A DNA stretch of 64,000 bases from a virus. Position numbers and translations under genes: made by a program. Shown here one piece after another: positions 9,143-44,315 of the stretch (position 1 is its first letter; each line of letters starts with the position of its first letter). The stretch lies in the IMG/VR virus record IMGVR_UViG_3300036985_006248, positions 110,281 to 174,280 of that record; one strand, written 5' to 3'. Below the pieces are notes generated by a model. That model made no database searches. It saw only the letters and a list, made by a program, of their open reading frames with translations, and was not told the DNA's origin.

Positions 9143-9348
9143 TAAAGAACCTTTACTTGCATATATTCGTATTCTTCTGCCTTAATAAATTCATCAAAAG
9201 AGTATGTTCTAACTTCTTCGGACTCGGTATCTAAATACGTAATATACGCATCCTTAAGAAAAGTCATCAGCTTTTTCTTATTTGAAAAATACCACTCTTC
9301 GGTAGATGGATAATGATAAAGTTTATAGATTTTCATTTGGCTGCTCAC
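9142..9348 (-). CDS. hypothetical protein
   Basis: Overlapping operon ORF. Confidence 0.5.
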   Translation of the reverse strand: MSSQMKIYKLYHYPSTEEWYFSNKKKLMTFLKDAYITYLDTESEEVRTYSFDEFIKAEEYEYMQVKVL

Positions 9349-9806
9349 GACGCGACCTCCGTGCGGAAGACCTCATTGTGCGCCCGCTTCCACGTTGAGC
9401 GGGAAGGCACCTCCTCCTCGGACTCACACACGAGGTCACGAAGCGCCTCCCGCGGCCGGTCAATCTCAGCCAGCAGCACCTCGATGGCGGACGCCATCTC
9501 CTTCGGAACCGGGTGGACGAAGCCTCGCACCTGCACCATTGCCTCGGGGTCGCTGTGCTTCTTCGGGAAACAGCCTTTCGTCGGGCAGTAGAAGCCGACA
9601 GAGCCACCGTCAACCTGCGCCGCACCGCACCGCTCGCAGCCACCATCAGCCGCATCAACCTCGGGAATGGCTGCGATTGCGTCGAGGTAGCCGTTCAGCT
9701 CGGCGTTCTTGGCCTCCAGTTCCGCGACGCGGGCTTGTAACGCCGTAACCCACGGTGTGCCGTCCAAGCAGTCTTCACATATGCAATCGCTAAAGTGTTT
9801 GCTCAT
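9345..9806 (-). CDS. hypothetical protein in a GC-rich island
   Basis: Start with GGA RBS; coiled coil ARVAELEAKNAELNG; CxxC pairs; strongly GC-ending codons. Confidence 0.65.
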   Translation of the reverse strand: MSKHFSDCICEDCLDGTPWVTALQARVAELEAKNAELNGYLDAIAAIPEVDAADGGCERCGAAQVDGGSVGFYCPTKGCFPKKHSDPEAMVQVRGFVHPVPKEMASAIEVLLAEIDRPREALRDLVCESEEEVPSRSTWKRAHNEVFRTEVAS

Positions 9807-13323: not shown

Positions 13324-14034
13324 TTACTTGATTCTTAATTCATTATATGCTTTGATTGTTTCTGGAAAAAGATCTTCAGATATCTTTAAGCATGCATTCG
13401 CTACTTGTGTTATTTCCCATTGCGCGCCTTCATGAGAACGCAGTTCAATAAACTTGAATAAATTATTTAAGTTGACTGTCCCATAATATTCAGTATATAA
13501 GTTCTGCGGCAATACTCCCCGTGCCTGTTCTCGACAAACACCTGCTTTCATTAAATCTTCATATAGCTCAACTGACTGCCGATTGTGGTAAACCACCAAC
13601 TCGTTAGCATACATCCCGAGATTTTTGTTTCCTTCCAAAATGATTGGGTTAACAAGCTGTTGTGAGTTGCTAGCCTGCCGGTTGTTGGCGTGTTGAGTAC
13701 GAAAAGACTTTGGTTCATAGAATTGCAGGTTTTCATCAGTATAACGACGAGAAATTTCGTTATAGCTCCAAGTGCGGTGCCTGTGATGCTGTGAACGAAT
13801 AAACAACGGAACAACAAACTTGAAAGTAATCAAGTTGTGCTCAAGAGTTGAAGTGTGTCGATGTTTGATGAGATATCGAATAAGCTTTTTATCTTTTTCA
13901 TCAAGAGCATTGTCATTATCTTGACCAAAACTAACTCGCGCACTGTTCACAATTTTTTTATCATTTCCCATATGCTCAACATATTGTACTCTACCGATGT
14001 TGTCGCCATATAAATAGATTGTATCGTTTATCAT
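13324..14034 (-). CDS. thyX: flavin-dependent thymidylate synthase
   Basis: ARVS, HTSTLEH, RHRTWSYNEISRRY, AREQARGVLP-type motif, LRSHEGAQWEI. Confidence 0.97.
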   Translation of the reverse strand: MINDTIYLYGDNIGRVQYVEHMGNDKKIVNSARVSFGQDNDNALDEKDKKLIRYLIKHRHTSTLEHNLITFKFVVPLFIRSQHHRHRTWSYNEISRRYTDENLQFYEPKSFRTQHANNRQASNSQQLVNPIILEGNKNLGMYANELVVYHNRQSVELYEDLMKAGVCREQARGVLPQNLYTEYYGTVNLNNLFKFIELRSHEGAQWEITQVANACLKISEDLFPETIKAYNELRIK

Positions 14035-15217: not shown

Positions 15218-18061
15218 TTAATAACACTTACTCCACCCACAACCGTCCTTACAAGTAGCACATCCATCTTGATATACTAATTTGCTATTGCATTCTGGAC
15301 AGTTGGAAGTTGAACCTGTAACTTCTTCGCCTTCTTTAATATATAGTTTTAACACCCTTGCAACTGCCTTACTAAATGTAGTCATACTTGTTGTTTCGCT
15401 CTTTAAAATTTGCTCTACAACAAATTTGACATCAGCACCATGACGTAATGAAAGAGATACCAAGCGAGTTAAGTCAGAATATTGTGTATTCTCAAATGCT
15501 TCCTTAATATCTACTGCTTCGACAGCTATATCATCAACCTGCAATAGATAATGACCTGATTTTTTCTTTATGATTTCGCCAATTTTTATATTTGTGGGAA
15601 TCTCAATCTTATCAGCTAATCCACCAAATACTTCGTATGGCTTACCATCGAATAACCCAACAAGGATTAACCACTTTTCACCCTTGACTGATACATGATG
15701 TATACCACAATTCAATGATTGCTTGCGCTTAATAGCCGCGTGTTGCTTAAAAGTATCTTTTTTAGTTTCTGTCGTTATGAGAACACCATCACGGCTGCCA
15801 TCTACATATACTGTGATTCCCTTAAGACCCAAACGCCATCCATTCATATACAATTCACCAACAACTTCTGGTGTGGTTCCCTTTGGTAGATTAATGGTAG
15901 AAGAAATTGAATGGTCGATATATTTTTGTATAGTTGCTTGTATTCTTACTCTGTTTTGCCAATTGATATTGTCGCTCTCTACGAAAAAATCAGGAGTTAT
16001 ATCTGTGTTGGCAAATTTCAAATATTCTTGAACGTTCTTATGATAAACCTTGAAGTTTATCCATCGATCTCCCATGTCATCAACAAAATCTGGCTTTGTA
16101 TCTTGCTCAGAATGGTCGAGTTTTCTGCGACGGGTATAAGAATTCTTAAAAACTGGCTCTATGCCAGAAGACGTTTGCGATTCAATAGACACTGAACCAG
16201 TGGGCGCATTTGTCAAAAGAGCGATGTTTCTACGTCCAGCTTTTGCCATCTTTTCTTTAATTTCTTCTGGAAGGCGCTGAATAAAATCATTATTCTTTTC
16301 CAACTCCCAATCAAAGATTGGAAAGGCTCCCCGCTCTTCAGCTAAATCAACGCTAGTCGAATAGGCAGCGTCACGGAAACAGTTATAGATTTTATCTATT
16401 AAGGCAATTCCCTCTTCGGAATCATAGCGTATTCCGCATCGTGCAACAGCATCAGCCAAACCATGAGTTCCTAAACCAGTTCGACGGCCATTTCGGCATG
16501 CATTCAGTAATTTATTCCAAAGTTCTTTCTCGCTTTCTGTGTCACATAAATTGATTATATTAACCAGTTTTTCAATTTCTAAATCAATTAAATCATCCGA
16601 TAGGCGCATTGCCATTTTCGTTACTCGCTCTAACTTTTCCATATCCATCTGAGCATCTTTAGTAAAAGCATTTGTTACTAAGTGTTTCAGATTTATACTT
16701 ATCAAGCGACAGCTATCGTAAGCAGAGAGGGGAATTTCTCCACAGTTTTTTACACAGAAACCCGAAGTAACAACTCCCTTTTCATCACTTACTTTGGTTA
16801 TAACATGATAATTGTGATTGTCATCGACTGTTATATTATATACGTCCTCTTGCCCAACATATTCTACAGAAACCACTTTATGGATATTCGATTCAAAAGA
16901 ATTAAATGGATAAAGGCTGTCACCGGGCTTTAAATCTTTTAATTGAGTGTAAGACAAATCTCTCTTTAAAATGCGGTGGTCGGGTGTCGCTCTAAATGTG
17001 GAACCGTCATCGAGAGTTAATTTCCAGATTTCCTTTGCTTGACCTGTCAAACGAGGATTTCTACCCATCTTTATTTCCACTTGTCCTGATACTAAATTAG
17101 TAGAATAAACAGGAACATCTTTTCCCTCTTTAGTGAGTTGTCCGATTGAGACATAATTTCGTCCATCTGCGACGGCAATCAAAGTATCACTTGTTATGCA
17201 AGGGTTCGTGGTAAGAGTCTTAAATGATGGATAGCAGTGTGCAGGAAGATTATTAATGATATTATCCCACATCAACAAACCCGGCTCTGCTGATTTAGTA
17301 GCAGAGTTGATTATTACATTCCATAGGTCTTTAGCCTTAATGGTCTTAGTAAAAGTAGGAGCGGTTGAACCAACGGGATAGTGCAAGACAAAATCTGAAT
17401 CTGTCTCAACAGCTTTCATAAAGTCATCAGTTACACGGATAGAGACATTAGCACCAGTAACTTTCTTTAAATCCTGCTTCATAAGCGCAAACTTCTCTAC
17501 GTCTGGGTGCCGAACATCGATGGAAATCATCAATGCTCCACGACGACCGTTTTGTCCTATCATACGGCAGACATAAGAATAGAAATCCGCAAAGGACCAT
17601 GCACCTGTAGTAGTGCCTGCACTATTATTAACCTTGGCGTTTTCTGGGCGTAATGTCGTTATGTCTACACCAACGCCGCAACGACGCTTGAATAAGTTAG
17701 CTAAATCTTTCCCAGCATCCATAATGGAAGTGACATTATCTGCTGGATTGTCTACAACTACACAGTTACTCAAAGAAGAAAGAGAATAATTATTTCCAAT
17801 ACCATACATTGGTGAGCCTTGTGGCACCACCCATTTAAAATCTTTAAAAAGATTAAAGATTTCTTCTTCGGAAATAGGGTTAGGATATTTTTTTTCAATA
17901 CGTGCAAACTCCTTAGCCAACCGACGATGCATATCATCAGGAGTTAATTCAAGAAAGCCTTCATCATTCTTTAAGGCATATTTAAAAAATACGTTTGTGG
18001 CAAGTTCGTCATCATTAAAATATTTCTTCGTGGCTTCCAATACTTGTTCTTTTTTGTACAT
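15218..18061 (-). CDS. nrdJ: class II (B12-dependent) ribonucleotide reductase with intein
   Basis: PQGSPM, SNCVV, TNP/CGE, RRTGLG, APTGS, GLKGITVY; C-terminal zinc ribbon. Confidence 0.92.
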   Translation of the reverse strand: MYKKEQVLEATKKYFNDDELATNVFFKYALKNDEGFLELTPDDMHRRLAKEFARIEKKYPNPISEEEIFNLFKDFKWVVPQGSPMYGIGNNYSLSSLSNCVVVDNPADNVTSIMDAGKDLANLFKRRCGVGVDITTLRPENAKVNNSAGTTTGAWSFADFYSYVCRMIGQNGRRGALMISIDVRHPDVEKFALMKQDLKKVTGANVSIRVTDDFMKAVETDSDFVLHYPVGSTAPTFTKTIKAKDLWNVIINSATKSAEPGLLMWDNIINNLPAHCYPSFKTLTTNPCITSDTLIAVADGRNYVSIGQLTKEGKDVPVYSTNLVSGQVEIKMGRNPRLTGQAKEIWKLTLDDGSTFRATPDHRILKRDLSYTQLKDLKPGDSLYPFNSFESNIHKVVSVEYVGQEDVYNITVDDNHNYHVITKVSDEKGVVTSGFCVKNCGEIPLSAYDSCRLISINLKHLVTNAFTKDAQMDMEKLERVTKMAMRLSDDLIDLEIEKLVNIINLCDTESEKELWNKLLNACRNGRRTGLGTHGLADAVARCGIRYDSEEGIALIDKIYNCFRDAAYSTSVDLAEERGAFPIFDWELEKNNDFIQRLPEEIKEKMAKAGRRNIALLTNAPTGSVSIESQTSSGIEPVFKNSYTRRRKLDHSEQDTKPDFVDDMGDRWINFKVYHKNVQEYLKFANTDITPDFFVESDNINWQNRVRIQATIQKYIDHSISSTINLPKGTTPEVVGELYMNGWRLGLKGITVYVDGSRDGVLITTETKKDTFKQHAAIKRKQSLNCGIHHVSVKGEKWLILVGLFDGKPYEVFGGLADKIEIPTNIKIGEIIKKKSGHYLLQVDDIAVEAVDIKEAFENTQYSDLTRLVSLSLRHGADVKFVVEQILKSETTSMTTFSKAVARVLKLYIKEGEEVTGSTSNCPECNSKLVYQDGCATCKDGCGWSKCY
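16745..17200 (-). mobile_element. mini-intein (152 aa) in NrdJ
   Basis: Starts CITSDT, block B TPDH, block F VYNITVDDNHNY, ends VKN before Cys of CGE. Confidence 0.93.
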
Positions 18062-18070
18062 AAACTTCCT

Positions 18071-18325
18071 TTATTGATTGATAAATGTCTTAAGCTTTTC
18101 TAAAGCTGCGCCACCACTCATGCGCGCTACTTCTTTTTCATCCTTTAATAAAACAAAAGTAGGTACAGCACGAACATCAAATTTTTCTGCTAACCATGAC
18201 TGCTCATCAACATCGACAAGCTGGTATTCTACATCATTTGTAGATTCCTTTAAGGAATTAAAAGTGGGTTTTGTACGTTGGCATGGACTACACCATTGGG
18301 CACTGAACATTATTACTTTTTTCAT
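18071..18325 (-). CDS. trxA: thioredoxin
   Basis: WCSPC, VPTF. Confidence 0.92.
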   Translation of the reverse strand: MKKVIMFSAQWCSPCQRTKPTFNSLKESTNDVEYQLVDVDEQSWLAEKFDVRAVPTFVLLKDEKEVARMSGGAALEKLKTFINQ

Positions 18326-19719
18326 GCTGTTTTTTCCTTTTTATATGAAGCATATTTTTGCTTCAGGTTCTGTTCTTGCTTTTTTGTTGCTTTTTCAATT
18401 AGTTCAGTCGCGCTCTCTAAACTCTGTGAGAGAACTTTAATCTTTACATTGGCCGTATCCATGAAAATAGGGAAAACAATTCCATCGGGACCATTACGAT
18501 TTTTAGCTACGAATAAACGTCCTTCGTTTGTATTCTTATCTTTGATTGTTCTGGAAATGGTAAAGATGAGGTCAGCTACGAAGCACTTATTAAATGCCTC
18601 GCTGATACTCTCCATTGTGATTACTTCGGCGTTTAAGCCGCTTCTGTTTGTTTGAGAAGCGGTCCACAATGAACAAGCATGTATCTGAGCTATGCCACGT
18701 AATTCTTCATAAATACTCTCCAGTTCATTGCGCTTTTCTTTCTGTAAATTGACAGGTCTAAGTAGGTCGCCGTAGTCTACAATGACCATATCAATTTTAA
18801 AATCTTTACGTTTTAATTTCTCAAGATGCATCTTAATTGTGTTGGTGCTTGCGGACTTAGTGGGATACTCTTTAATAATAAGCTTTCCTTTAACATCTTT
18901 GATACCTTCCCAAACAAGTTGCTTCTGTTCTTTTACATCATTAAGACCAATACCAGTGATGCATGAGTCATAACGCAAGGCTACTACCTTATCCTGTAAT
19001 TCTAATGTATAATGCACAACGTTAAGGCCAGCACTAAGTGCCATAGCTCCTAAATGGACAAGAGCCATACTCTTGCCAGCACCCGTTGGCGCAATAACTA
19101 CGCCAAGTTCCCCGCGCCCCAAACCACCCTTGGAAACACCATCGATAAGCTCCCACCCTGTAGAAATAGGGTTGCGTGCCTTTAACTCAAAGCGTTTTTC
19201 AAAGTCAACGATAAAATCGTATCCGTGGTTATTATCGGTACCAAGTTTAAGGGCATCATTGATAATCTTGGAGATTTCATCATAAGAAGATATCTGAATA
19301 AGACCTACGCTCTTAATCATTGCTTCCTTAAGCTTCTGCTTTTTACAGAAGTCAAGGGAAATGTCCTTAATGTGTTGCTCACCCTCAAGACTGAATTCGC
19401 TGGAGATAACACGCGCAAAAAATTCACGTACCTGCTTTTGTAAAAGCTCATTCTCCTTATCGATCTCTGTTCTTAAAATGGTCGTGATTGTATCGCGAGA
19501 CGGATGCGTGCCATACTTCTTTCGGTATTCAAATATCTTCTCTACGAAAATTCGTAGATACTTTAATTCAAGAAAATTCGTGTCTAATACTTCACTGATT
19601 TGGTCGCAGAATACGCGGTCATCAAGTATCAGTTGTACAAGATTCTCTTGAAAAGTTTTACCATATCTTTCAAAGGTAGGACTCTCATTAATAAAGTTAT
19701 TATTTTGGTTTCCGCTCAT
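18322..19719 (-). CDS. dnaB: replicative DNA helicase (DnaB/gp41-like)
   Basis: APTGAGKS, IVDYGDL, ASQTNR, KNRNG. Confidence 0.92.
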   Translation of the reverse strand: MSGNQNNNFINESPTFERYGKTFQENLVQLILDDRVFCDQISEVLDTNFLELKYLRIFVEKIFEYRKKYGTHPSRDTITTILRTEIDKENELLQKQVREFFARVISSEFSLEGEQHIKDISLDFCKKQKLKEAMIKSVGLIQISSYDEISKIINDALKLGTDNNHGYDFIVDFEKRFELKARNPISTGWELIDGVSKGGLGRGELGVVIAPTGAGKSMALVHLGAMALSAGLNVVHYTLELQDKVVALRYDSCITGIGLNDVKEQKQLVWEGIKDVKGKLIIKEYPTKSASTNTIKMHLEKLKRKDFKIDMVIVDYGDLLRPVNLQKEKRNELESIYEELRGIAQIHACSLWTASQTNRSGLNAEVITMESISEAFNKCFVADLIFTISRTIKDKNTNEGRLFVAKNRNGPDGIVFPIFMDTANVKIKVLSQSLESATELIEKATKKQEQNLKQKYASYKKEKTA

Positions 19720-19771: not shown

Positions 19772-20746
19772 TTAACAGTTTTCAATGACTATCTTATTCA
19801 TGTGTGCGTACATTTCTTCGAAATTCGTTTCTCCAAATCCATCCTTTAACATCATGGTCACTAATTCAGTCTTATTGAATGTACATTCGCTATTTTCAAG
19901 CGCATAATTGACCTTCTGCATATCTTGAATGGACATGTTTGGAATAGCTAATTGCATAATTTTATAGTTCTCTTTGATTAGCTCTTTATTCGCCTCAATG
20001 GTAGAATAGAGCTTAACCTTTGAATCTATACTTTTACAATAATTAAATATTTCATCAAGCATAAAAGTCTTTTCCTCCTTGAGTTGAGGAAGACGCTTTG
20101 CGATAGTGGCTAATCCTGCCCCACCAACCCCTGATAAGTTATCACTGGCGTCTCCAGCAATAGAACGCGCAAGACAGAAATTTGTAGGATGAATGCCATA
20201 TTCTTCCACTATACGTTTGGTGTTTAAAATTTCTTCTTTCACGGGACGATATAAAATAGTATTATCGTTACATAATTGGATAAAGTCTTTATCATTAGAC
20301 ACTATGATTTTGTTATAGTCCTTTAAACTATTGTGCTGGCAAATGGCCGAAATAATATCATCGGCTTCCACAGCATCCAATAGCAATTGAATAATAGGAA
20401 AATTATTCAAGTATTCTACCACTCTTGTCATTTGCCAGATTTTGTTTTCTAACTCTTGGTTCTCATTCAAGCTACGAACATTGCGGTTAAGACGAAATGG
20501 TTTACGCCCTTCTTTATAGTTCTTGTTTATTGCACGACGCTTTGAAGATCCACCCTTACCGTCCCATGCAAAAACAATTCGATTAGGTTTAATTTCCCGA
20601 CAGAGCTTTTGTAGACTCTTTATGGTGCCAAAGATGCCGCCGATTGGGTCACCTTTATTTGAAATAGCCGGATTCACTACGTAATTGCGTATGTAAAGGT
20701 TGTTTCCGTCAATTACCAATACCCGCTTTTTGTCATTACTCATCAT
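19772..20746 (-). CDS. 5'-3' exonuclease / flap endonuclease (T4 RNase H-like)
   Basis: VIDGNN, YKEGR, EADD, SNDKDFIQL, GDASDNLSGV. Confidence 0.92.
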   Translation of the reverse strand: MMSNDKKRVLVIDGNNLYIRNYVVNPAISNKGDPIGGIFGTIKSLQKLCREIKPNRIVFAWDGKGGSSKRRAINKNYKEGRKPFRLNRNVRSLNENQELENKIWQMTRVVEYLNNFPIIQLLLDAVEADDIISAICQHNSLKDYNKIIVSNDKDFIQLCNDNTILYRPVKEEILNTKRIVEEYGIHPTNFCLARSIAGDASDNLSGVGGAGLATIAKRLPQLKEEKTFMLDEIFNYCKSIDSKVKLYSTIEANKELIKENYKIMQLAIPNMSIQDMQKVNYALENSECTFNKTELVTMMLKDGFGETNFEEMYAHMNKIVIENC

Positions 20747-20752
20747 TATTCC

Positions 20753-21215
20753 TCAAAGTTTATAAGTACCAATAACTTCATTGTCAACGGTATAAAATAC
20801 CTTATCAATGCCATATTCAACCATTACGGCATGACACATACTACAGGGTTTGCTCATACGTCCCTCTTTGCCGTCCTTAGAGCAGCGAGCGACATACATG
20901 ACAGAGCCTTTGGTGACGCGATGAGAAATATTCAGTAATGCTCTGATTTCTGCGTGATAGGTTGGCGTGCCCTTCTCTTCCGAACGATAATTTTTGCCAA
21001 CAGAGCAGTATCTCTCTGAATTGACGCCAAGACCAATAATTGCACCACCACGAACAAGAACAGCACCATGTCTAAAGTTACCATAAGTAGAATTCCCAGC
21101 CAGCTTTTTAGCTAACTGAAAGATACCTCCGAGTTTTCTTTGAAGTATCATAACAAGACATTACGCTATCGCTAATAAAGCTATGCTTCTTCTCGTAAGA
21201 GCTAACCGTTTCCAT
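20753..21215 (-). CDS. zinc-dependent deaminase (CMP/dCMP deaminase fold); probably starts at 21215 and needs a +1 shift near 21120
   Basis: HAE...PCSMC motif; strong RBS only at 21215. Confidence 0.8.
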
Positions 21216-21268
21216 GTGCTTCTCCTTCTCCTTTGTTTATCTACTCAGGTATAGTAACACGACTATTG

Positions 21269-21466
21269 CTAGTCATCTACATCATTTAATAAAATTAAAT
21301 TGCGTACCTGTATTGTGATAATCCAGTCGTTTTTTAAAAATTCGACTTTCGCAGAATTTCCTACGTTAAGAACTTCTGTTATTATTCCCAAATATTCTTC
21401 TGTAGAAGGCTCACCGTGACCTCCCATCTTCCAAGATACTAATTGTCCAATTTTAGCTTTAAACAT
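21269..21466 (-). CDS. hypothetical protein (SH3/KOW-like)
   Basis: KIGQLV..LGIITEV. Confidence 0.55.
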   Translation of the reverse strand: MFKAKIGQLVSWKMGGHGEPSTEEYLGIITEVLNVGNSAKVEFLKNDWIITIQVRNLILLNDVDD

Positions 21467-22388
21467 TAATATTGTGTTGCTCTCGCATTTTTATCAATGC
21501 GAAATTTTTCATTTTTGCTTCTATATCGACATCAATGGTATTATCTCGCATATGCTGCAATTGTAATTCGGGAATATACCGAATATATTTCGAATGGCTG
21601 CGCCTTTCGGTGAAAGAGCCATTTTCCATACCTTCTTCTGTGTTGGAAATATGCTGCAAGGGCTTTATATTACCCCATGACTTCATAGTTTGCAAAAATG
21701 CTTCATTAAAAGATATATCATTACTATTAAAATTGTAGTGGTGACTGTCAAGAACAACTGGCACACCAGTTTTTTGATAGACCTCCAATAACTGTTTAAC
21801 ATTATAACACCTCTCGTCATTTTCAAACGTTAGACGCTTTTTAACGTTATCTGGGAGCTTATTTGTCACCTCAACCAGCATGTCTAGTTTGCCACGTTTT
21901 CCACCATGAATATTAATAGCATAATATGGTGAATGAGCAAGCCCCATCATATCAAAAACCCATGCATGATATTCTAATTCACGAATGGAATTTTGAATAA
22001 CGCGGTCAGAATCACTATTAATAATGGTGAATTGGCCGGGGTGAGTGGTTATGCGAACATCGTTATCAATAAATAGTTTGCCAAGTTTGGCAAGCTTATC
22101 AATAAGTATATTATCATTTTTTGCTAAATTACCAGCAAAATCAAAAAGTGGAAATATAGAACTAGATATCCGAAAAGATTTAATATTTTTTTCAATCAAT
22201 TTTGGGAAGAAATCAATATGGGTTTGAACATTATTTTGGTAAGTATCAATAATACGCTGTTCTGAATATTTTCCTTCCTTGTAGGCACCAAGTTGCAAAT
22301 TCTTTTCATCAATAACATTTTCATACACAATGGTGTTGTCGCGCTTTTTACGCGGGTGAAGAAATTGGCAGCAAACAGACAATGACAT
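21459..22388 (-). CDS. uvsE: UV-damage endonuclease
   Basis: FRISS, HPGQFT, INIHGG, ENDE, DSHH; start MSLSVCC after AGGAG. Confidence 0.92.
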   Translation of the reverse strand: MSLSVCCQFLHPRKKRDNTIVYENVIDEKNLQLGAYKEGKYSEQRIIDTYQNNVQTHIDFFPKLIEKNIKSFRISSSIFPLFDFAGNLAKNDNILIDKLAKLGKLFIDNDVRITTHPGQFTIINSDSDRVIQNSIRELEYHAWVFDMMGLAHSPYYAINIHGGKRGKLDMLVEVTNKLPDNVKKRLTFENDERCYNVKQLLEVYQKTGVPVVLDSHHYNFNSNDISFNEAFLQTMKSWGNIKPLQHISNTEEGMENGSFTERRSHSKYIRYIPELQLQHMRDNTIDVDIEAKMKNFALIKMREQHNINV

Positions 22389-22401
22389 GTGTGAGACTCC
22401 T

Positions 22402-22439
22402 AAAAGAAAACCACTATAGCATGTTACGCTATAGTGGTT
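22402..22439 (-). terminator. rho-independent terminator after recA
   Basis: AACCACTATAGC/GCTATAGTGGTT stem plus T-tract. Confidence 0.8.
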
Positions 22440-22461
22440 CACTAGGCAAGGAAAGCTTTTA

Positions 22462-23613
22462 TTAATTAGTTTCTGGTGGGGTTTCTTCTTCCCCTTCAAT
22501 ATTATAGAAGTTTTTCGCATCGCCTTCACGAGTATCAAATTTAACAATTACTTCTCGATCCATGATGCCATATACTGAATTTTTGAAAGCTTCTTCTTTC
22601 ATCAAATCATTCCAACCAGATTGCTGGAATTTCTTTGTTTGGCCATCGACATCCATTTCGTACCAAGCTCCAGATTGTTTAATGAATGGCTTGATAGCTT
22701 CAAAAATACTTTCGTTATCTAAGACTCCAACACTGCCACCCCACATAATACGAAATAAACATTCTCGACCAGCAGTTCCAAAGCGGGACTTTTCAAGTCT
22801 TGCCTTCACTTCACTACCAATCTTATAACCGCGTTCATCAAGCACAAAGCTATCTTTGGCCTTGCGTCCTGTCAACCAAATGCGTAAGCTATATGAATAA
22901 TTTAAGGCTTTGCCACCGGGAGTTGTGTACTTCTCACTGTCAGTTGCATACTTGGGATTCTGAACACTTAAGTTCGTTTTGAGCTGGTTTAGAATTAGTA
23001 ATGTTGAGTGGCTATTTGCAATAGGTTGAATTAGCTTTGATAATCCCTTTGCAAGAATTCTTGGTTTAACCGCCATGGATGACAAAGGATCAAAATCGCC
23101 TTCAATATCGGTCTTGCTGGGTGTTAATGCCATAGAGTCCCAGATAAACAACATCTTACTTTGATTATTCTTTAGCAAGTCTTCAATGCTTTCAAGTACA
23201 TATTCTACACTCTCTGCCTGTACATAGAGAATTCTTGACATATCGCATCCTGCCATTCTCATAAATTCTGGATCTATGGCGCTCTCAGAGTCAAAATATA
23301 CTACATCGATTCCCATCTTTTGAGCGTTAGCGGCAACTTGCGCTGCCATATAGCTTTTACCAGAGCCCTCTAGCCCAGCTAATTCCGTCACCTTACCAAC
23401 AGGAATGCCAGCTAATTTACCACGACAAATGATTGAGTCGAGCCACCGTGAGCCCGTTGGAATCCAATCCTTGACTTCAGTGGGATTTTCTTCTTGCAAA
23501 TCAAATGCAACTTCTCTACCACTCTTTTTATTTAATAAATCGCGTAATTGATTAATCGATACTTTTCCTGCTGTAACCGATTCTTTAGTTTTTTTTGTCA
23601 CTTTTTCAACCAT
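22462..23613 (-). CDS. recA: RecA/UvsX recombinase
   Basis: GLEGSGKS, DSE, IWDS, NQLK, TPGGKAL. Confidence 0.93.
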   Translation of the reverse strand: MVEKVTKKTKESVTAGKVSINQLRDLLNKKSGREVAFDLQEENPTEVKDWIPTGSRWLDSIICRGKLAGIPVGKVTELAGLEGSGKSYMAAQVAANAQKMGIDVVYFDSESAIDPEFMRMAGCDMSRILYVQAESVEYVLESIEDLLKNNQSKMLFIWDSMALTPSKTDIEGDFDPLSSMAVKPRILAKGLSKLIQPIANSHSTLLILNQLKTNLSVQNPKYATDSEKYTTPGGKALNYSYSLRIWLTGRKAKDSFVLDERGYKIGSEVKARLEKSRFGTAGRECLFRIMWGGSVGVLDNESIFEAIKPFIKQSGAWYEMDVDGQTKKFQQSGWNDLMKEEAFKNSVYGIMDREVIVKFDTREGDAKNFYNIEGEEETPPETN

Positions 23614-42554: not shown

Positions 42555-44315
42555 TTATCCTTCTAAGTCCTCGACCACAACAATTCCGTACATGTCTGGG
42601 CGAACCATTGCCTTACCATAACGGGTCAACACAGCCTTGCGGGGTGTGAAGGTGTTTGGATCGAAGATTGTTGGGGTGCTTTGTAGCGGAACGTAAGGGG
42701 CGTATACATAACCACTTTCGAGGAAGCTTCCACCCTTGCGACCAACAAGGATTACGTTACGAATGAAGTATGGGTGAACAATGATATCCCATTTCTTATT
42801 CATATCACCAACCTTAACTGCACCGACTGCGCCTTTTTCTGCATCATTTGTTACTGATGCGCGGAAGCCGCTGGTGAATTCAAGGATATTGGCAACTTCT
42901 GGTGAGCAAACGAGGAAGTTTGCGCCGCCGCGAAGCGTCTTGCGGTGAATCAATGCCGATACATCGTTAACGGTTTCAACGAGGGTTTCATACCACATTG
43001 ATACGTTACCAGTGAAGTCCGGTGGTGCTGTATAAGCGCCAACACCGATATCTGCGCCAGTTGAACGGTTAACGAACTTACCCGGACGACGTGACCAATA
43101 CTTGACACCAGCAGTTGCACCCTTAACCAAGTCATTCAAGATTTCTTGGTCGATTTCAAGACCAATTTGTTCTGAAAGGATGCTGGTTAATTCAACTTCT
43201 GCATCGAGGTTGTGGTATGCGTTCAAATCTTGACCTAATTCCGGGGTCCATGATGCCTTGAGCTTACGAGTACGAGCAGTGATTGAGAAACTGTCAACCT
43301 TTAATTCAACTTCTGGAATTTCGGCTGTGCCTTCAAGAGTCCAAGGGCTAGCTCCAACAAGTGCGCCGAGGGCATTGGTGCCAACATTTTCAAGATTATC
43401 CTTGATTGGGTATGACAATAATACGTCCGAACCAGTTACAACGCTAGCCAAAGCTGCTGCTGAACCAGAGGTTGCAAGAACAATTTGGAGGTTCTTAACG
43501 CCTGCAACATCGACTATTGAGGTTAAACGACGGATAACGGTTGCAGGACCGGTTAATGCTGAACCAGTTGCATCGCCTGCTGCGGCTGCCATAGGAGCGG
43601 CCAATTGAGCAATTGATGTAGCAAATACGTCTTTTTCTGCCAACAAACCGCTTTGTGATAATGCGGTGAGCGGTATGCGTAATACTGAGGCTGATGTAAA
43701 CGTTACGGTGTCCAATAAGTCAGGATCCCAACGAATTAAAGCCTTTTGAGCATCCGTTGCAGCAGCCAAACCGAATGCTGCGGCAGTTGCAACGCTAGCA
43801 GTTGGAACTGATGCATGGTAGCGTGAGGTATTATAACCATTTGCTAAGTTATAGAAACCCTTTTCTGTTTGTGCGCCATCGAGACGTACACCAGCGGTGA
43901 TTTCAACACCCAAACGATCGCCAAAGAATGAATCATTCTTGGTGAATACGCGATCACCAACGTTACCAACGCTTGTGCCACGCTTGAAATCCATGAAGAA
44001 TACAAGACCTGACGGCAAGCTCATTGGTTGAACTGAGACTAAATCGTTAGCAATTAAGCCAGCGAATACTCTGCGAACAATTGGGAAAGCTACAGCAGCG
44101 AAACCTTGAACATCACCTCCTGCCATCGTGGTCGCTTCACGTAGTAACTCTTTTGCTTGGTTCTCTAATAACACTGCCATTGTTGACTTTTGGCGTTCTG
44201 TCTTCAAACCTTCCAAAAGACCTGACTTTTGCCACTTTCCTACTATTGCTTTGGTTTCTGCTAACATGTTGCGTTCAACGACGCCTTCAGTTAACCGTTC
44301 TAATACGTTACTCAT
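42555..44315 (-). CDS. major capsid protein (gp23)
   Basis: LLENQ, FPIVRRVF, VQPM..PSGL, RKLKA.W..E..QDL, YAPYVPL, TRYG. Confidence 0.97.
   Translation of the reverse strand: MSNVLERLTEGVVERNMLAETKAIVGKWQKSGLLEGLKTERQKSTMAVLLENQAKELLREATTMAGGDVQGFAAVAFPIVRRVFAGLIANDLVSVQPMSLPSGLVFFMDFKRGTSVGNVGDRVFTKNDSFFGDRLGVEITAGVRLDGAQTEKGFYNLANGYNTSRYHASVPTASVATAAAFGLAAATDAQKALIRWDPDLLDTVTFTSASVLRIPLTALSQSGLLAEKDVFATSIAQLAAPMAAAAGDATGSALTGPATVIRRLTSIVDVAGVKNLQIVLATSGSAAALASVVTGSDVLLSYPIKDNLENVGTNALGALVGASPWTLEGTAEIPEVELKVDSFSITARTRKLKASWTPELGQDLNAYHNLDAEVELTSILSEQIGLEIDQEILNDLVKGATAGVKYWSRRPGKFVNRSTGADIGVGAYTAPPDFTGNVSMWYETLVETVNDVSALIHRKTLRGGANFLVCSPEVANILEFTSGFRASVTNDAEKGAVGAVKVGDMNKKWDIIVHPYFIRNVILVGRKGGSFLESGYVYAPYVPLQSTPTIFDPNTFTPRKAVLTRYGKAMVRPDMYGIVVVEDLEG

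Follow-up and report, generated by a model that had tools for sequence, protein, structure and literature searches.

The one textbook example of Shine-Dalgarno (SD)-stimulated +1 frameshifting at CUU-U in bacteria is the prfB gene, where a stop codon in frame and the encoded protein, release factor 2 (RF2), form a feedback loop. A sense codon in the A site of E. coli prfB constructs reportedly lowers shifting, according to Curran and Yarus, whose RF2 reporters are laboratory constructs combining an SD-N3-CUU arrangement with hungry-codon or sense-codon +1 shifting on CUU-N. An SD-like sequence is also said to take part in the -1 shift of the Bacillus subtilis cdd gene. The prfB motif consists of an SD-like AGGGGG, a spacer of 3 nt, CUU U and GA C (10.1101/2024.09.24.614795; PMC5009743), and the cdd shift, which occurs at CGA AAG and extends the cytidine deaminase, is considered incidental in a review (PMC5009743). 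Full-text searches of the literature returned no description of frameshifting in a phage dCMP (deoxycytidylate) deaminase, nor of the prfB-type signal reported here; among deaminases, the closest published example is the -1 shift of Bacillus cdd, regarded as incidental.

Here we analyze a signal of the prfB geometry in a deaminase gene of a freshwater phage. The window, a stretch of 64,000 nucleotides, belongs to a phage record of 174,280 bp (GC 0.38, 15 tRNAs) and carries all of its genes on the minus strand. The original prediction had described a double ribosome-binding site ahead of an ATG at 21215, opening a 35-aa ORF, and had proposed that a prfB-like +1 cassette joins this ORF to a deaminase lying in the +1 frame, whose own ATG at 21151 lacks a ribosome-binding site, to produce a protein of 153 aa. 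The coordinates and sequence of the ribosome-binding site, the start codon and the end of the short ORF all hold on the minus strand: the stop codon of a 65-codon ORF is followed by AAGGAGAAGGAG and then by the ATG at 21215-21213. The sequence ahead of the ATG at 21151 is agcgtaatgtcttgtt, which lacks GGAG, in agreement with the description of that start. A +1 shift after CUU would generate a 153-aa product reading KKTRRYL-QLAKKLA, with CUUU read as a single Leu. The comparative evidence set out below strongly supports the joining cassette, and we conclude that one 153-aa deaminase (21215..20753) is very probably made through a programmed +1 ribosomal frameshift. The features of the locus and its neighborhood are listed in Table 1.

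Table 1. Coordinates of the frameshift cassette, its gene and other features of the window
Feature	Coordinates	Strand	Remarks
SD AAGGAGAAGGAG for the 0-frame start	21233-21222	minus	From sequence; SD core precedes the 0-frame ATG in 58/58 frameshifted relatives
0-frame part, codons 1-32 (METVSS...DTSKKTRRYL)	21215-21120	minus	ATG to slip codon CUU
35-codon 0-frame ORF	21215..21108	minus	Ends ...CGG AGG TAT CTT TCA GTT AGC TAA
Arg codon CGG	21131-21129	minus	
Arg codon AGG	21128-21126	minus	
Internal SD-like GGAGG within CGG AGG	21130-21126	minus	3 nt 5' of slip codon; putative stimulator
Spacer / E-site codon UAU	21125-21123	minus	3 nt
Slip codon CUU (Leu32)	21122-21120	minus	P site
Extra base U	21119	minus	Would be skipped in the shift
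0-frame stop UAA	21110-21108	minus	Would end the 35-aa product of non-shifting ribosomes
+1-frame part, codons 33-153 (QLAKKLA...GTYKL) and stop	21118-20753	minus	CDA-fold zinc deaminase body, HAE and PCxxC
Deaminase-frame ORF, 132 aa	21151..20753	minus	+1 frame relative to 35-codon ORF; PF00383 E 1e-15
Deaminase-frame ATG	21151-21149	minus	Used by automatic gene calls; probably no real start; no SD
Hairpin	21121-21094	minus	12 bp, begins at slip site
UvsX-like recombinase	22462-23613	minus	
UvdE	21459-22547	minus	
Flap endonuclease	19772-20746	minus	
DnaB-like helicase	18322-19719	minus	
Ribonucleotide reductase	15218-18061	minus	
ThyX	13324-14034	minus	
Major head protein, T4-type	42555-44315	minus	
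High-GC island with 153-aa ORF	9345-9806	minus	460 bp

As in prfB, where the leading ORF spans 25 codons in E. coli, a short 0-frame ORF of 24-35 codons is followed by the functional body in the +1 frame. CUU is likewise preceded, at a distance of exactly 3 nt, by a purine block resembling an SD, UAU being the commonest spacer in the phage family, and the slip would run from CUU to UUY. The phage signal differs from prfB in presenting UCA, CCA or CAA at the A site instead of UGA-C, in a skipped base that may be C as well as U, and in belonging to an enzyme of nucleotide metabolism rather than to a translation factor. Lacking an A-site stop, the deaminase cassette would therefore support neither release-factor sensing nor an autoregulatory loop. 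With cdd the locus shares ribosomal frameshifting in a gene of the CDA family, but the cdd shift is -1, close to the 3' end, and yields a minor extended product, whereas the proposed phage shift is +1, close to the 5' end and obligatory for the enzyme. The RF2 reporters of Curran and Yarus match it in geometry and in the use of an A-site sense codon; unlike those constructs, the phage deaminase would constitute a natural gene family that depends on the shift.

A protein search identified 71 close homologues of the deaminase, and 160 loci, each anchored on the invariant FRHG motif, were compiled from collections of viral and metagenomic sequences, freshwater samples providing most of them. The main comparison set was made up of non-redundant loci with at least 50% identity, of which 58 are broken in the same way at one shared codon and 5 have a continuous frame; 4 further continuous loci were fetched by protein identity. 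The broken loci span 50-83% amino acid identity, and the loci at 40-49% identity are all continuous, reading x-R-Y-(F/L/M)-x-L-A-(K/R). Deposited phages provided no DNA-similarity match and a scan of 185,579 species genomes revealed no relative, the deaminase family being known only from viral and metagenomic contigs. In every broken locus the SD-equipped 0-frame ATG leaves 18-35 codons ahead of the site, and the position of the 0-frame stop is not conserved, falling 2-22 codons past it. A single-base break may look like an error or a fresh mutation, and the original prediction had named a 1-nt insertion, through mutation or misassembly, as its alternative. That alternative is excluded: many independent assemblies contain the break, in 58 distinct sequences, and the added base may be T or C, so that a miscounted homopolymer does not account for it. 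The downstream frame is also under strong purifying selection, and the cassette is conserved. A pseudogene, or a mistake of sequencing or assembly at 21119, therefore has a negligible probability and is refuted for the family.

The substitution pattern among relatives indicates which frame is translated on either side of the site. Upstream, column entropy is highest at the third codon position of the 0 frame (1.66 vs 1.06 and 1.04), and synonymous changes make up 0.238 of the pairwise codon differences when these are read in the 0 frame, compared with 0.059 and 0.031 for the remaining frames. Downstream, entropy peaks at the third position of the +1 frame (1.25 vs 0.39 and 0.27), where the synonymous share reaches 0.741, against 0.028 and 0.025. 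Since both measures switch at the site, protein-level selection changes frame at CUU-Y. This pattern bears directly on the possibility of two separate overlapping genes, in which a 35-aa peptide and a 132-aa deaminase starting at the ATG at 21151 would be made with no shifting. The window does provide that ATG, the 132-aa ORF alone passes PF00383, and public predictions of relatives are mostly of 131-133 aa. However, there is no coding signature in the +1 frame upstream of the site, and in 23 of the 58 broken loci the deaminase frame has no ATG, GTG or TTG between the preceding stop and the domain; in the remaining relatives the position of such a start varies and no SD accompanies it. The short form would moreover exchange the conserved RRYL half of helix 1 for GGIF, and continuous relatives fuse exactly the two parts that this explanation keeps apart. 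We consider two independent genes highly improbable.

Public gene calls for relatives, mostly of 131-133 aa and starting M..GGIFQLAKK, begin at fortuitous +1-frame codons, so that the family is systematically annotated, wrongly, in an N-terminally truncated form. In a few public calls, 145-147 aa long, a single frame reads MDxDGPQ...SKKxRRYL(Q/S/K)LAKK. Across the public predictions for the 71 homologues (P0001-P0071), lengths of 131-140 aa predominate, with fortuitous ATG, TTG or other starts in the +1 frame.

The protein predicted from a single +1 shift conforms to its family across the junction. The 0-frame part shows homology to the N-terminal end of the continuous relatives, and the joined reading SKKTRRYL-QLAKKLA fits their motif S-(K/R)-K-x-R-R-Y-(L/F/M)-x-L-A, which the +1-frame reading GGIF does not. 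In a 62-sequence alignment reaching down to 30% identity the motif takes the form S-(K/R)-K-x-R-R-Y-(L/F/I)-x-L-A, and joining the frames brings back SKKxRRYLxLAKK, which is shared across the family. Continuous relatives have exactly one residue between RRYL and LA, as does the joined protein, and a +1 shift therefore fits; a -2 shift, which would leave two residues there, was rejected. Alignment of the joined protein with the continuous relative P0042 is gap-free through the junction at 63% identity. Joining also raises the PF00383 score from 57.9 bits (profile positions 8-101) for the 132-aa ORF to 61.1 bits (2-101), and the phrog_174 score from 62.4 to 71.8 bits. An AlphaFold2 model of the joined protein has a mean pLDDT of 93.2, with a helix (residues 26-39) continuous across L32|Q33 and a strand (17-20) supplied by the upstream, 0-frame part.

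Both readings of the gene score well above the PF00383 cut-off of 25 bits for a CDA-fold zinc deaminase, and the positions of the zinc and catalytic motifs, H66 A67 E68, P102 C103 and C106, do not vary across 44 sequences. The best PDB profile matches are dCMP deaminases, led by 4p9c from cyanophage S-TIM5 (1e-13) and including 1vq2, 2hvv and 2w4l, and the top 11 Foldseek matches of the model are likewise dCMP deaminases (TM 0.53-0.58). Profile and fold ranking agree in placing dCMP deaminases (S-TIM5, then T4, S. mutans and human) ahead of TadA, RibD and cytidine deaminases; TadA profile matches are at 1e-7 or worse, and phrog_174, 'dCMP deaminase', matches at 1.6e-19. NCBIfam equivalogs remain below their cut-offs, with 21 bits vs 219 for ComEB and 24 vs 114 for cytidine deaminase. 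On these similarities, the 153-aa protein is most likely a dCMP deaminase. Its gene sits in a replication and nucleotide module, and the presence there of ThyX and ribonucleotide reductase makes a role of the predicted enzyme in the route from dCMP through dUMP to dTMP likely.

Conservation of the cassette extends to the nucleotide level. The SD-like block of the 58 broken loci is CGGAGG in 56, AGGAGG in one and AAGAGG in one. The original prediction had pointed to homologues as a check on the frame break and its spacing, and both are retained: GGAGG is present in 57/58, and the block lies 3 nt from the slip codon in every broken locus, even though the spacer itself, TAT in 45, may be TTT, TTA, ACT, GCG, CTA or CTT in the rest. 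No outgroup locus has GGAGG at the cassette position. The block is made up of CGG and AGG, which at 3.9% and 5.0% are used less than any other Arg codon in this phage, and the probability of GGAGG given Arg-Arg is 0.0045 from phage codon usage. The slip codon is CTT in 54 loci and CTC in 4, and the extra base is T in 30, C in 28 and never a purine, the two combining as CTT-T (30 loci), CTT-C (24) and CTC-C (4). The next +1-frame codon is CAG, the minor Gln codon of the phage (22.7%), in 51 loci and AAG in 7. Within the window, GGAGGNNNCTTY occurs in 2 copies against 0.48 expected; in the second (9414-9403) CTT and the ORF at 9345..9806 are in different frames, and this copy was discarded as a chance occurrence. 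A single copy of the motif would not on its own beat chance; its recurrence at one and the same codon in 57 of the 58 non-redundant relatives with the break does. At the end of the deaminase gene (20753-20761, minus strand) the sequence AAA CTT TGA G places CUU-UGA at the natural stop; having no SD-like block 3 nt upstream, it was taken as chance.

An extra base that is always a pyrimidine fits the re-pairing of a GAG-anticodon tRNA-Leu on UUY, as expected from wobble rules. The four CUC-C loci (L024, L027, L028 and L123) do not fit simple re-pairing, as this tRNA should not re-pair well on UCC. Their site reads CGG AGG TTA CTC C, CUC-C always occurring with a UUA spacer, and the complete genome containing L027 encodes a tRNA-Leu(UAG). 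The position of the skipped base, directly after a Leu codon, would also be compatible with other means of restoring the frame, namely a quadruplet-reading tRNA-Leu that takes CUUY as one codon, transcriptional slippage or RNA editing. However, the 15 tRNAs of the whole phage genome and 40 more in the tRNA clusters of four relatives all have 7-nt anticodon loops in ARAGORN predictions, with no RAAG anticodon, and the CTTT or CTTC run (site CTTTC or CTTCC) is far too short for slippage of the polymerase. A quadruplet-reading tRNA would also leave the strict placement of GGAGG at 3 nt without explanation. We judge all three routes very improbable, although a factor encoded by the host might still act in this way. 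Initiation in the +1 frame at the AUC just after GGAGG was also rejected: the spacing would be 1 nt, and the AUC is not conserved as the spacer varies.

RNAalifold analysis of 39 relatives found no conserved RNA structure downstream of the site (-1.67 kcal/mol, no covariation). The window itself contains a hairpin (Table 1) with 4 G-C pairs, a z of -2.45 and a terminator-like score. It was rejected as a stimulator, not being conserved in relatives and arising as a by-product of the L-A-K-K-L-A codons.

The codon offered at the A site in the 0 frame is UCA in 30 broken loci, CCA in 21 and CAA in 7, and in none of the 58 is it a stop. According to the original prediction, deaminase output could be gated by the supply of Ser-tRNA for UCA. 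Given that the A-site codon varies, and that a relative with a UCA site (G003) encodes its own tRNA-Ser(UGA), Ser-tRNA sensing is not supported: such a gate is not a conserved feature of the family, and UCA is an ordinary Ser codon of the phage (21.7% of Ser), as CCA (43% of Pro) and CAA (77% of Gln) are for their amino acids. A broader proposal, which would add to the programmed shift rather than replace it, is that its efficiency tracks the speed of A-site decoding, so that output answers tRNA charging or supply. The phage would then have tuned a timing or state sensor in which shifting follows the slow decoding of UCA, CCA or CAA in a host poor in the tRNAs for these codons, and the ribosome load from the strong SD may also influence shifting. 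It is the case that the A-site codon always ends in A, that phage tRNA sets are biased to A/U-ending codons, which suggests hosts poor in such tRNAs, and that +1 shifts are known to be favored by slow decoding at the A site (PMC5009743). Yet the identity of the codon is not conserved and is largely forced by the next +1-frame codon, CAG or AAG, the phage makes frequent use of all three A-site codons, and carriage of the cognate tRNA is without pattern: it is absent here (UCA), present as tRNA-Ser(UGA) in G003 (UCA) and as tRNA-Gln(UUG) in G004 (CAA). We deem such regulation unlikely. If true, the build-up of phage tRNAs or changes in charging would turn deaminase synthesis and dTTP supply up or down with no need for a protein regulator, making the cassette a natural analogue, based on a sense codon, of the RF2 feedback loop.

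Trees of the deaminase body place all frameshifted sequences in one clade (SH-aLRT 99), apart from the continuous outgroup, and the earliest branch within that clade is frameshifted. Eight continuous forms are scattered in it, for which parsimony requires 7 state changes, at least 2 of them forced by well-supported branches; the trees rest on 121 columns and leave many forks without resolution. The junctions of these mended forms read CGG AGG TAT CTT CAG (L117), CGG AGG TAT CTC CAG (L162), CGG AGA TAT CTT CAG (L109), CGG AGA TAT CTT TCG (L163/L164), CGA AGG TAT CTT TCG (L020), CGA AGA TAT CTT TCG (L166), CGC AGG TAT CTG AAG (L165) and CTA CGT TAT CTT GAA (L130), and their differences argue for several separate mending events. 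GGAGG has gone in 6 of the 8, in 5 through a synonymous change of Arg codon and in L130 with a Leu-Arg reading; one more has exchanged CTT for CTC, so that 7 lack either GGAGG or CTT and only L117 keeps the whole cassette. Continuous relatives had been named in the original prediction as a sign against frameshifting. Such relatives do exist within the clade, and the loss of cassette elements in all except one of them speaks in favor of the shift: the SD-like block is lost in most mended forms and was therefore held only while the shift was needed. Mending takes a one-step deletion and regain a precise insertion, and the long persistence of the break therefore suggests that the broken state, kept across about 40-48% protein divergence, is favored and not merely tolerated. 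Comparison of these sequences thus brings out a conserved break, a frame switch in selection, conservation of the cassette at the nucleotide level and its decay after mending.

Applied to this gene, what is known of prfB would have a P-site slip, stimulated by the SD-like block, operate as follows. Ribosomes would start at the SD-equipped ATG at 21215 and read 32 codons. With CUU in the P site, the GGAGG located 3 nt upstream would pair with the anti-SD of 16S rRNA, and peptidyl-tRNA-Leu would slip from CUU to UUU, skipping U21119, and +1-frame reading would resume at CAG. Without the slip, ribosomes would stop three codons later and release the 35-aa peptide. The cassette would in this manner set, and may modulate, the fraction of initiations that yield enzyme. 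As a sense codon at the A site is said to lower shifting in E. coli prfB constructs, efficiency may be low.

A cassette of this kind implies that the prfB geometry can be kept by selection in a phage enzyme of nucleotide metabolism with a sense codon at the A site. The SD-N3-CUU-Y module would accordingly work outside release-factor control, and a natural gene family could depend on shifting with neither a stop codon nor a downstream RNA structure. Mended relatives devoid of the SD offer reverse evidence, suggesting that ordinary genes are burdened by an internal GGAGG placed before CUU-Y. The more than 50 sequences constitute a clean test set for gene finders and frameshift predictors, and the cassette would make a simple reporter system for the SD's own share in +1 shifting.

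Among T4-like myoviruses the phage is a distant member, and it has no close relative in culture. Its major head protein is nearest to those of Flavobacterium and Microcystis T4-like myoviruses (46-49% identity), and its ribonucleotide reductase to those of Bacteroides and crAss-like phages (38-44% identity; Bacteroides phages 38%), some of them annotated as vitamin-B12-dependent. Hints about the host disagree, the capsid pointing to Flavobacterium or Microcystis phages and the reductase to Bacteroides phages, and yet an SD core is common, preceding 45% of the first ATGs of the phage against a background of 7%. The window also contains a high-GC island (0.59-0.65, in a phage of 0.33-0.38) whose ORF has no Pfam match and almost no homologues, leaving the homologue search uninformative; the island appears to have been acquired recently from a donor of high GC, and it might provide a hint about the host. 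ARAGORN also predicts, at G000:C1:82729-82814 (outside the window) and L169:2549-2638, a tRNA of 86-90 nt with anticodon UAU (Ile, AUA) and a long variable arm, unusual for tRNA-Ile; both this phage and the relative G003 have it.
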